Positions 3,650 through 4,335 of a DNA stretch of 64,000 bases are shown here, in pieces (the stretch's first letter is position 1; every line of letters starts with the position of its first letter). The stretch covers positions 56,367 to 120,366 of the forward strand of contig NW_026869102.1 in NCBI RefSeq assembly GCF_020745735.1, in the 5' to 3' direction. The notes under the pieces are model-generated. The model searched no databases, was not told where the DNA came from, and was given only the letters and a program-made list of their open reading frames with translations. Both the position numbers and the translations under genes were made by a program. Source of the DNA: Hemiscyllium ocellatum (taxonomy: Eukaryota).

Positions 3650-4335
3650 CGATACAATAAATAACACCAGGAAAAGGCATAGTTTCCGGCCGGTTTTTAA
3701 CCTGTTTGCTGCTATTTTAAACACAACGAGCCTCCTCCCGCCTCCCAACCGCCGCCCGATTTAAATCTGATCAAAGCCCCGCCCTCCTCCCGGCCCGAGC
3801 GCCAGCGCCTCGCCTTCCATTGGCTACCCTCCGGGAGGTGGGCGGGGGTGATTGGTTGCGCGCGCGGGGCATTACCGACGTTGATACGGCAAGAGCAGTG
3901 ACTGGCAACGGGTTTATCCAATCCGATGGGGGAGAAGGGGTAGCCAATGGGAAGCGAGGTTAGGGCCGGGAGTGCGGGTGTTGGGGGGGGGTGAGAGTTG
4001 GAGGCGGCGGGGCCTCAGAGGCCGGACACGCGCGGAGTGCCCAATGGCCGCTGGGCCACGTGATCCGCGGTGAGGCATCCGATTGACGGGCGGCCGGACC
4101 AACCAGAGGCAGGTACTGGGTAAAGGGGCGTTCCTGAGCTGAGCGGCCAATGAGAGCGGTGTGGGGATGCGGCGGAGGACCAATAGGACGAGGCGCTCGC
4201 GCTCGGGGGGGGCGGGGCTTTGGTCAGATTTAAATCGGGCGGCGGTTGGGAGGCGGGAGGAGGCTCGTTGTGTTTAAAATGGCAGCAAACAGGTAAAAAC
4301 CGGCCTCTTACCTGGTGTTATTTATAGTAATCTGA
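3650..4335. promoter_or_regulatory. CpG-island-like core rich in CCAAT boxes, enclosed by about 125-bp inverted repeats. Either a candidate bidirectional NF-Y-type promoter or a TIR-bearing non-autonomous element.
   Basis: Left arm 3650-3775 and right arm 4195-4335 are about 90% reverse-complementary. Each arm carries atttaaat and tttaaa(a). The core 3780-4190 is CpG-dense and has at least 7 CCAAT/ATTGG boxes (3819, 3852, 3918, 3944, 4041, 4147, 4179) and one CACGTG at 4057. The right arm contains ATG (4279) GCAGCAAACAG followed by the donor-like gtaaaa at 4293. Confidence 0.45.

Follow-up and report, generated by a model that had tools for sequence, protein, structure and literature searches.

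The KIF22 locus and its surroundings

The stretch of Hemiscyllium ocellatum DNA analysed (64,000 nucleotides; hereafter the window) contains a KIF22 gene whose exons, located by tblastn, extend from 9863 to about 30 kb. The best protein match was the KIF22 of Chiloscyllium punctatum (90% over the motor domain). The first coding exon lies at 9852–10065 on the + strand, with the ATG at 9863–9865, and is numbered exon 2 here. The KIF22 exon at 12687–12820, which also carries the label exon 2, showed a 2-nt insertion relative to C. punctatum at about 12722–12730 (GGAATTCAGTATG versus GGAGATCTATG) that shifts the frame into a TGA stop. A partial upstream copy of this exon (1423–1531) has the same insertion state. 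The remaining KIF22 coding sequence looks intact (dN/dS 0.41, dS 0.16 versus C. punctatum); an apparent C-terminal frameshift turned out to be an ordinary exon boundary. KIF22 may be pseudogenised here, or be present as a haplotype-specific allele, or the insertion may be an assembly error. A disabled KIF22 would not change the identity of the upstream island described below, but it bears on whether that island is still under selection.

Segment 1106–2763 was found to be a mosaic of copied KIF22 and NUFIP2-like pieces, lying in order and in + orientation. Its sources were those labelled KIF22 intron 1 (11595–11926, 87%), exon 2/intron 2 (12709–13238, 92%) and exon 4 (14084–14298, 95%), together with the 5′ end of the NUFIP2-like gene downstream (36636–37223, 91%). 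The mosaic was absent 5′ of KIF22 in C. punctatum, and looks like a decayed local duplication or the product of template switching. A tandem array of a ∼570-bp unit (4338–6228, about 3.3 copies) directly adjoins the right arm of the inverted repeat described below, and an inverted copy of this array (10342–11436, 95–98% identity) lies beyond the first coding exon, which is thus located between large inverted repeats. KIF22 intron 1 also contains a perfect-type palindrome of 182 bp (9020–9201; 96.7% identity to its own reverse complement). The neighbourhood upstream of KIF22 has clearly been rearranged. At the other end of the gene, the minus strand of 35962–37056 carries a 364-aa ORF of the NUFIP2 family (PF15293, E 2e-21), placed tail-to-tail with KIF22 as in Heterodontus francisci. 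The last 27 kb of the window (37200–64000) hold about 893 copies of a 30-bp satellite (TGGGACGTCCCGCTGGTCGGGTATAGGAGA) that yields a spurious 2239-aa ORF; a separate 48-bp satellite is found at 34415–36055.

An inverted repeat within a CCAAT-rich CpG island

A first-pass annotation of the window had drawn attention to region 3650–4335 for its CpG richness, its seven or more CCAAT/ATTGG boxes, a CACGTG and the presence of TTTAAA in both flanking arms, and all these elements are indeed in the sequence. Within this region, CCAAT occurs at 3918, 3944, 4041, 4147 and 4180, ATTGG at 3819 and 3851, TTTAAA at 3716, 3760, 4229 and 4273, and the E-box CACGTG once, at 4057–4062. The seven CCAAT/ATTGG boxes compare with 1.8 ± 1.3 expected (P about 0.003; 5000 first-order Markov simulations preserving the composition of region 3650–4335), although the boxes in the arms are copies of each other and therefore not independent, the duplication supplying part of the excess. 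TTTAAA was observed four times, against 0.2 expected in the same simulations. The window has a second CCAAT-dense zone, which arises because a 43-bp satellite in a KIF22 intron (26244–28353) contains ATTGG; the same satellite is present at the C. punctatum locus (L003 29448–30536).

Segment 3720–4270 qualifies as a CpG island (thresholds: more than 200 bp long, GC above 0.5 and CpG o/e above 0.6), with a GC content of 0.67 and a CpG o/e of 0.93. The CpG o/e was about 1.15 in each arm, as opposed to 0.32 and 0.16 in the immediate flanks. It is the sole true CpG island across 1–14000, where the remaining sequence mostly shows an o/e of 0.1–0.5, and no second island was found between 4335 and the KIF22 ATG. 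An Rfam scan of 1–12000 gave no matches.

The island is enclosed by an inverted repeat. Arms of 125 bp had initially been proposed; the repeat is real, but this length is too short, the arms spanning 3653–3833 and 4173–4329. The core of the repeat (3695–3787/4207–4299) comprises 93 nt with 96% identity (BLAST E 1.7e-44). Identity between the arms was 97% across the GC box, the TTTAAA at 4229 (a cell-cycle CHR element, as argued below) and exon 1, and 81% over all shared alignment columns, the arms differing by substitutions and several indels. The right arm (4173–4329, + strand) is oriented towards KIF22 and aligns with the promoters of four other elasmobranchs. It contains a proximal CCAAT box (4180) located 49 nt 5′ of the CHR (4229–4234), a GC box at about 4209–4218, the sequence GGCGGCGGTTGGG at 4238–4250, the predicted exon 1 and 37 nt from the start of intron 1. 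Its homology stops at 4329, where the array of the ∼570-bp unit begins.

The left arm (3653–3833, minus strand) repeats the KIF22 core promoter, exon 1 and its donor in inverted form. In + strand coordinates, its motifs are the ATTGG boxes at 3819 and 3851 (CCAAT boxes spaced by 32 bp), CCGCCC at 3779, a CHR TTTAAA at 3760–3765, at a distance of 469 bp from its mirrored counterpart, and an outer TTTAAA at 3716. It has ATA in place of an ATG of the right arm, and GTTAAA at the donor. Contiguous with this arm, an inverted copy of the start of the ancestral KIF22 intron 1 (X; 3141–3652, minus strand) was recognised by its reversed collinearity with the sequence directly 3′ of exon 1 in C. punctatum (L003 6420–6814; 82–88% identity). 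The island centre (3834–4172, + strand) includes the CCAAT boxes at 3918, 3944, 4041 and 4147 and the CACGTG. From about 4045 on, its orthologue is the 5′ half of the promoter in C. punctatum; 3935–3985 is a third, partial copy, in + orientation, of the CCAAT module of left-arm type (repeat I4). Positions 3860–4040 matched nowhere else (a BLAST search of 3826–4150 against the window and the four loci compared returned only itself).

A predicted cell-cycle promoter with a short leader exon

The region was compared with the KIF22 loci of Scyliorhinus canicula (L001), H. francisci (L002), C. punctatum (L003) and the ray Hemitrygon akajei (L004). All four shared one layout. The CpG island, rich in CCAAT boxes, has a TTYRAA hexamer towards its end; a short exon 1, non-coding and bounded by a GT donor, comes next, and an intron filled with repeats (1.4–8.5 kb) leads to a polypyrimidine-AG acceptor 6–11 nt 5′ of the ATG. 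The sequences at the CHR were gcgcggcagaTTCGAAtacggtGGCGGTTGGG in S. canicula, gcgcggtaaaTTTGAAtctg...GGCGGTTGG in H. francisci, gatcaggTTTAAAtcgggcGGCGGTTGGG in C. punctatum, tggcggcagaTTCAAAcgtcccatcGGTTG in the ray and ggtcagaTTTAAAtcgggcGGCGGTTGGG in the right arm of the window. The corresponding donors were cacg/gtaaat, ggcg/gtaatt, aacag/gtgaaa, atag/gtaata and aacag/gtaaaa, respectively. In a MAFFT alignment, one column brought together TTTAAA (window and C. punctatum), TTCGAA (S. canicula), TTTGAA (H. francisci) and TTCAAA (ray). The five species thus display all four variants of TTYRAA, with the outer TT and AA invariant and changes only at positions 3 (Y) and 4 (R). The GGCGGTTGG downstream of the hexamer, the donor and the acceptor of the window aligned with the four other loci as well. 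The TTTAAA motifs had been regarded as CHR-like in both arms; this holds for the inner one at 4229 (mirrored at 3760), which is a conserved CHR, while the outer TTTAAA is not. In the window and the four loci, a CHR at most 14 nt from GGCGGTTGG or its complement was found nowhere but in the KIF22 promoter islands or on their edges. In H. francisci and the ray, the strict match falls in a second module, on the 5′ border of the island, and the KIF22-proximal CHRs match more loosely.

CCAAT boxes lie 5′ of the CHR in the window, and equivalents were found in the other four loci (in the ray, ATTGG boxes read directly). The two boxes of the right copy (4147 and 4180) are spaced by 33 bp, a spacing that is conserved in cyclin B2 (PMC3287175); in C. 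punctatum the distance is 40 bp, and the 33-bp spacing was therefore given no weight. S. canicula, H. francisci and the ray have a CDE-like G/C-rich hexamer exactly 4 nt 5′ of the CHR, in keeping with the classical rule of a four-base CDE/CHR spacing (PMC3287175). The window and C. punctatum have lost this hexamer, which makes both of them CHR-only. Between these two species, the identity of the core (85–88%) was not above that of neutral intron (about 87%), and constraint across the core is visible only in the motifs. The KIF22 promoters of S. canicula and H. francisci contain repeated TGATTGAC(AG) decamers (L001 7947, 8001 and 8381; L002 5292–5480), arranged in H. francisci in tandem modules of about 47 bp. 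These decamers resemble the PBX-MEIS/PREP composite site. A 33-bp satellite (cagtactgaccctctgacagtgcggcactccct) fills KIF22 intron 1 in the same two species (L001 8620–9940; L002 5600–9930), which represent different shark orders.

The predicted non-coding exon 1 of KIF22 (4235–4292, + strand) ends at a donor, cag/gtaaaa, whose GT is at 4293–4294. The donor-like gtaaaa reported earlier at this position is therefore present; it lies 58 nt 3′ of the CHR at 4229, and orthologous donors were found in the four other species. The predicted 5′ end of the exon was placed near 4235 on the ground that CHRs coincide with the TSS or closely adjoin it (PMC4176359). The predicted intron 1 (4293–9851, 5559 nt, + strand) contains the tandem array of the ∼570-bp unit and LINE fragments; from about 4596 on, it is collinear with C. 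punctatum intron 1. The LINE content that had been attributed to it is borne out by ORFs resembling reverse transcriptase (RVT_1, E about 1e-6, slightly below the Pfam cut-off). The acceptor expected before the first coding exon was also found, although its AG occupies 9850–9851, so that exon 2 starts at 9852 rather than at 9851. This acceptor and the 11-nt leader preceding the ATG are identical in C. punctatum.

Joining exon 1 to 9852 would place an upstream ATG (4279–4281) at the head of a 10-codon uORF, MAANSAVDNV*, out of frame with the main ATG and overlapping it. This ATG lies within ATGGCAGCAAACAG, a sequence highlighted in the first-pass annotation, and it is not conserved as a start: the equivalent sequence is AAAAAGCAGCAAACAG in C. 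punctatum and ATAGCAGC in the left arm, and the sequence at this position is wholly different in S. canicula, H. francisci and the ray. Since the upstream ATG is neither conserved nor in frame, exon 1 is best regarded as a 5′-UTR exon, with a short uORF in this species. A protein search with the 81-aa N-terminus of KIF22, seeking transcript fragments that include the 5′-UTR, yielded no candidates.

In the literature, KIF22 is listed among the late cell-cycle genes with a conserved CHR (PMC4176359; also PMC4705690). TTTGAA, TTTAAA and TTCGAA account for 80% of CHRs (PMC4176359), and the LIN54 consensus is TTYRAA (PMC4974476). The layout shared by the four loci and the orthologous CHR at 4229 therefore support, by conservation, the reading of the island as a promoter with a spliced leader. 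A KIF22 promoter followed by a short exon spliced over about 5.5 kb, as suggested from the sequence of the window, agrees with the four-locus conservation of CHR, donor and acceptor. Likewise, the suggested NF-Y-plus-CHR architecture of G2/M type fits both the conserved layout and the presence of KIF22 among the conserved-CHR genes (PMC4176359). The island is thus considered a probable cell-cycle promoter containing the short untranslated exon 1 of KIF22 (probability roughly 0.8). The position of the TSS and the 4292-to-9852 junction are predicted from sequence, and so is the binding of NF-Y, LIN54/MuvB and other factors at their putative sites.

In such a promoter, NF-Y bound to the CCAAT boxes, together with factors recognising the GC box and the E-box, would provide basal activity. 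The CHR at 4229 would recruit MuvB via LIN54, with DREAM repressing the gene in G0/G1 and MMB-FOXM1 activating it in G2/M. Transcription would start at or just 3′ of the CHR, and an exon 1 of about 40–60 nt, ending at 4292, would be spliced over 5.56 kb to 9852, 11 nt 5′ of the ATG. This would assign the promoter, in an orectolobiform-type shark, to the late cell-cycle (G2/M) class. Similarly to known CHR/NF-Y promoters such as those of CCNB1 (with TTTAAA), CCNB2, CDC25C and mammalian KIF22, the region in the window is a TATA-less CpG island with CCAAT boxes 5′ of TTYRAA; its CHR is phylogenetically conserved, and the gene has its orthologue among the listed CHR genes. The 33-bp CCAAT spacing of CCNB2 is the same as that of the right-copy pair. 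As regards CDE/CHR promoters, the likeness extends to S. canicula, H. francisci and the ray, which share the CDE-like hexamer, but not to the window and C. punctatum. Unlike in the known DREAM/MMB-FOXM1 promoters, the core of the one in the window is present twice, in mirror orientation.

Origin and possible activity of the mirrored copy

C. punctatum, which is collinear with the window at about 87% identity, has a single promoter (L003, about 6195–6410). No inverted repeat was found at the loci of S. canicula, H. francisci or C. punctatum, and none was visible in the ray promoter sequence, which was read directly. In a three-way alignment of right copy, left copy and C. punctatum, the relationship changed from segment to segment. 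The upstream part (U), with the E-box and the distal CCAAT, was 88% identical between right copy and C. punctatum, compared with 54% for left copy versus C. punctatum and 54% for right versus left copy. Across the GC box, CHR and exon 1, the corresponding values were 85, 88 and 97%, and over the first ∼50 nt of the intron they were 73, 92 and 80%. Compared with C. punctatum, both copies in the window lack the same 17 nt and share 16 substitutions. The left copy runs on, in inverted orientation, for about 500 bases collinear with C. punctatum intron 1. The ancestral flanks are therefore split between the copies, and an ancestral order U-core-X now reads rc(X)-rc(core)-centre-U-core.

The first-pass annotation had considered that the arms might delimit a MITE-like insertion. 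Segment 3653–4329 would then be a transposon with terminal inverted repeats whose GC-rich interior merely resembles a promoter. As in MITEs and other TIR transposons, inverted repeats (here of about 150–180 nt) surround a short interior (about 340 bp), and a TA dinucleotide occurs at both ends. However, both arms consist of host promoter sequence, whose orthologues occupy this locus in other species: the right arm and the part upstream of it correspond to the non-palindromic, single-copy promoter of C. punctatum, and they align with three more species. On its outer side the left arm has no true terminus, as homology to C. punctatum extends about 500 bp further. Nor is there a target-site duplication, since the flanks (...gaagcga/TACAAT... 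and ...ATAGTA/atctgag...) show no direct repeat. The additional genomic copies by which a mobile element might have been recognised did not appear either: BLAST detected no further copy of the arm unit within the 64-kb window, and searches of 3000–4700 against S. canicula and H. francisci, and of 1–30000 against C. punctatum, found the arms only at KIF22 promoters. A transposon origin is hence scarcely credible.

A second possibility is that the palindrome was created during assembly, by a fold-back chimeric read or a misoriented segment. Long-read assemblies are known to produce false palindromes and inverted duplications, and rearranged fragments and tandem arrays abound in the neighbourhood. 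A fold-back would nevertheless generate identical arms, while those observed are 81% identical over shared columns and attain 97% in the core alone; each of them also adjoins a different ancestral flank. The substitutions and indels between the arms, and their distinct flanks, make an assembly artefact very improbable, if slightly less so than a transposon.

The palindrome is most likely a lineage-specific inverted duplication of the core plus X, and not a transposon. The duplication would postdate the split from the Chiloscyllium lineage, unless the copies have been homogenised since. The order of the steps can be proposed as follows. After that split, a segment of about 0.7 kb, running from the proximal CCAAT through GC box, CHR and exon 1 with its donor to the beginning of intron 1, would have been copied, inverted, to a place about 0.3 kb upstream. 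The KIF22-facing copy would have kept the upstream E-box/CCAAT part and then lost the intron start (X) beside the array of the ∼570-bp unit; the left copy would have become a relic, or a secondary divergent core promoter. Inverted segmental duplications arising by fold-back or template-switch repair likewise have diverged head-to-head arms, a unique spacer and a lineage-specific distribution, and the window is similarly a region with other copied fragments (1106–2763). The present case differs in being very small, with arms of about 0.2–0.7 kb, and a fold-back or template-switch origin is putative here.

Whether the left copy is a relic or a working promoter bears on a further reading, in which the left arm acts as a divergent core promoter and both arms together form a new bidirectional G2/M promoter. 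A divergent bidirectional promoter had been offered in the first-pass annotation as an alternative; it is conceivable for the duplicated left copy only. The left arm retains a CHR, a GC box and a pair of CCAAT boxes spaced by 32 bp, is 97% identical to the right core, and lies within a CpG island that is not depleted (o/e 1.15). CCAAT boxes located 5′ of the CHR are thought to set the direction of CHR promoters (PMC4176359, discussion). Moreover, a second CHR-like module, read on the minus strand and followed by a GGTGAG donor, marks the 5′ border of the KIF22 island in the ray (L004 1066–1092) and in H. francisci (L002 4925–4950). It consists of GGCGGTTGG/GGCCGTTGG, TTTGAA/TTCGAA, CGGAAGTGG and the GGTGAG donor, in that order, and includes an ETS-like motif. 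These second modules make an ancestral divergent TSS conceivable, and they may correspond to it.

A leftward transcript from the window would cross 3652 to about 2200, including the sense-oriented partial 5′ end of the NUFIP2-like gene. Against this reading, the donor of the left copy is weakened to GTTAAA, T at +3 being rare in vertebrate donors. The 3.6 kb to the left contain pseudogene fragments only, with no intact gene; taking two head-to-head genes that start less than 1 kb apart as the mark of a bidirectional promoter, no partner gene was found in 1–3650, and none was called 5′ of the island in S. canicula, H. francisci or C. punctatum (in the ray, the island is ∼1 kb from the edge of L004). 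The sequences 5′ of the islands showed no conservation between species in blastn searches, which returned short repeat matches only and no conserved exons, and C. punctatum does without any left copy. An active left promoter is accordingly regarded as possible but doubtful. A little more doubtful still is the specific proposal that the inverted duplicate is a newborn CHR-controlled divergent promoter driving a lineage-specific leftward transcript, perhaps in replacement of the ancestral divergent start.

With the island read as the KIF22 promoter, the element is of an ordinary, well-understood kind, with a small structural oddity specific to this lineage. For annotation, this places the KIF22 promoter and a 5′ untranslated exon in a gene that otherwise seems to begin at a promoterless acceptor. 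The palindrome is a small example of promoter sequence duplicated in mirror orientation, and would matter more only if the extra copy were active; an active left copy would be, if true, a natural cell-cycle promoter made bidirectional by a small palindromic duplication. More generally, the NF-Y/CHR design of this mitotic kinesin promoter appears to be common to sharks and a ray, with the CHR varying only at the two positions where the LIN54 consensus is degenerate.
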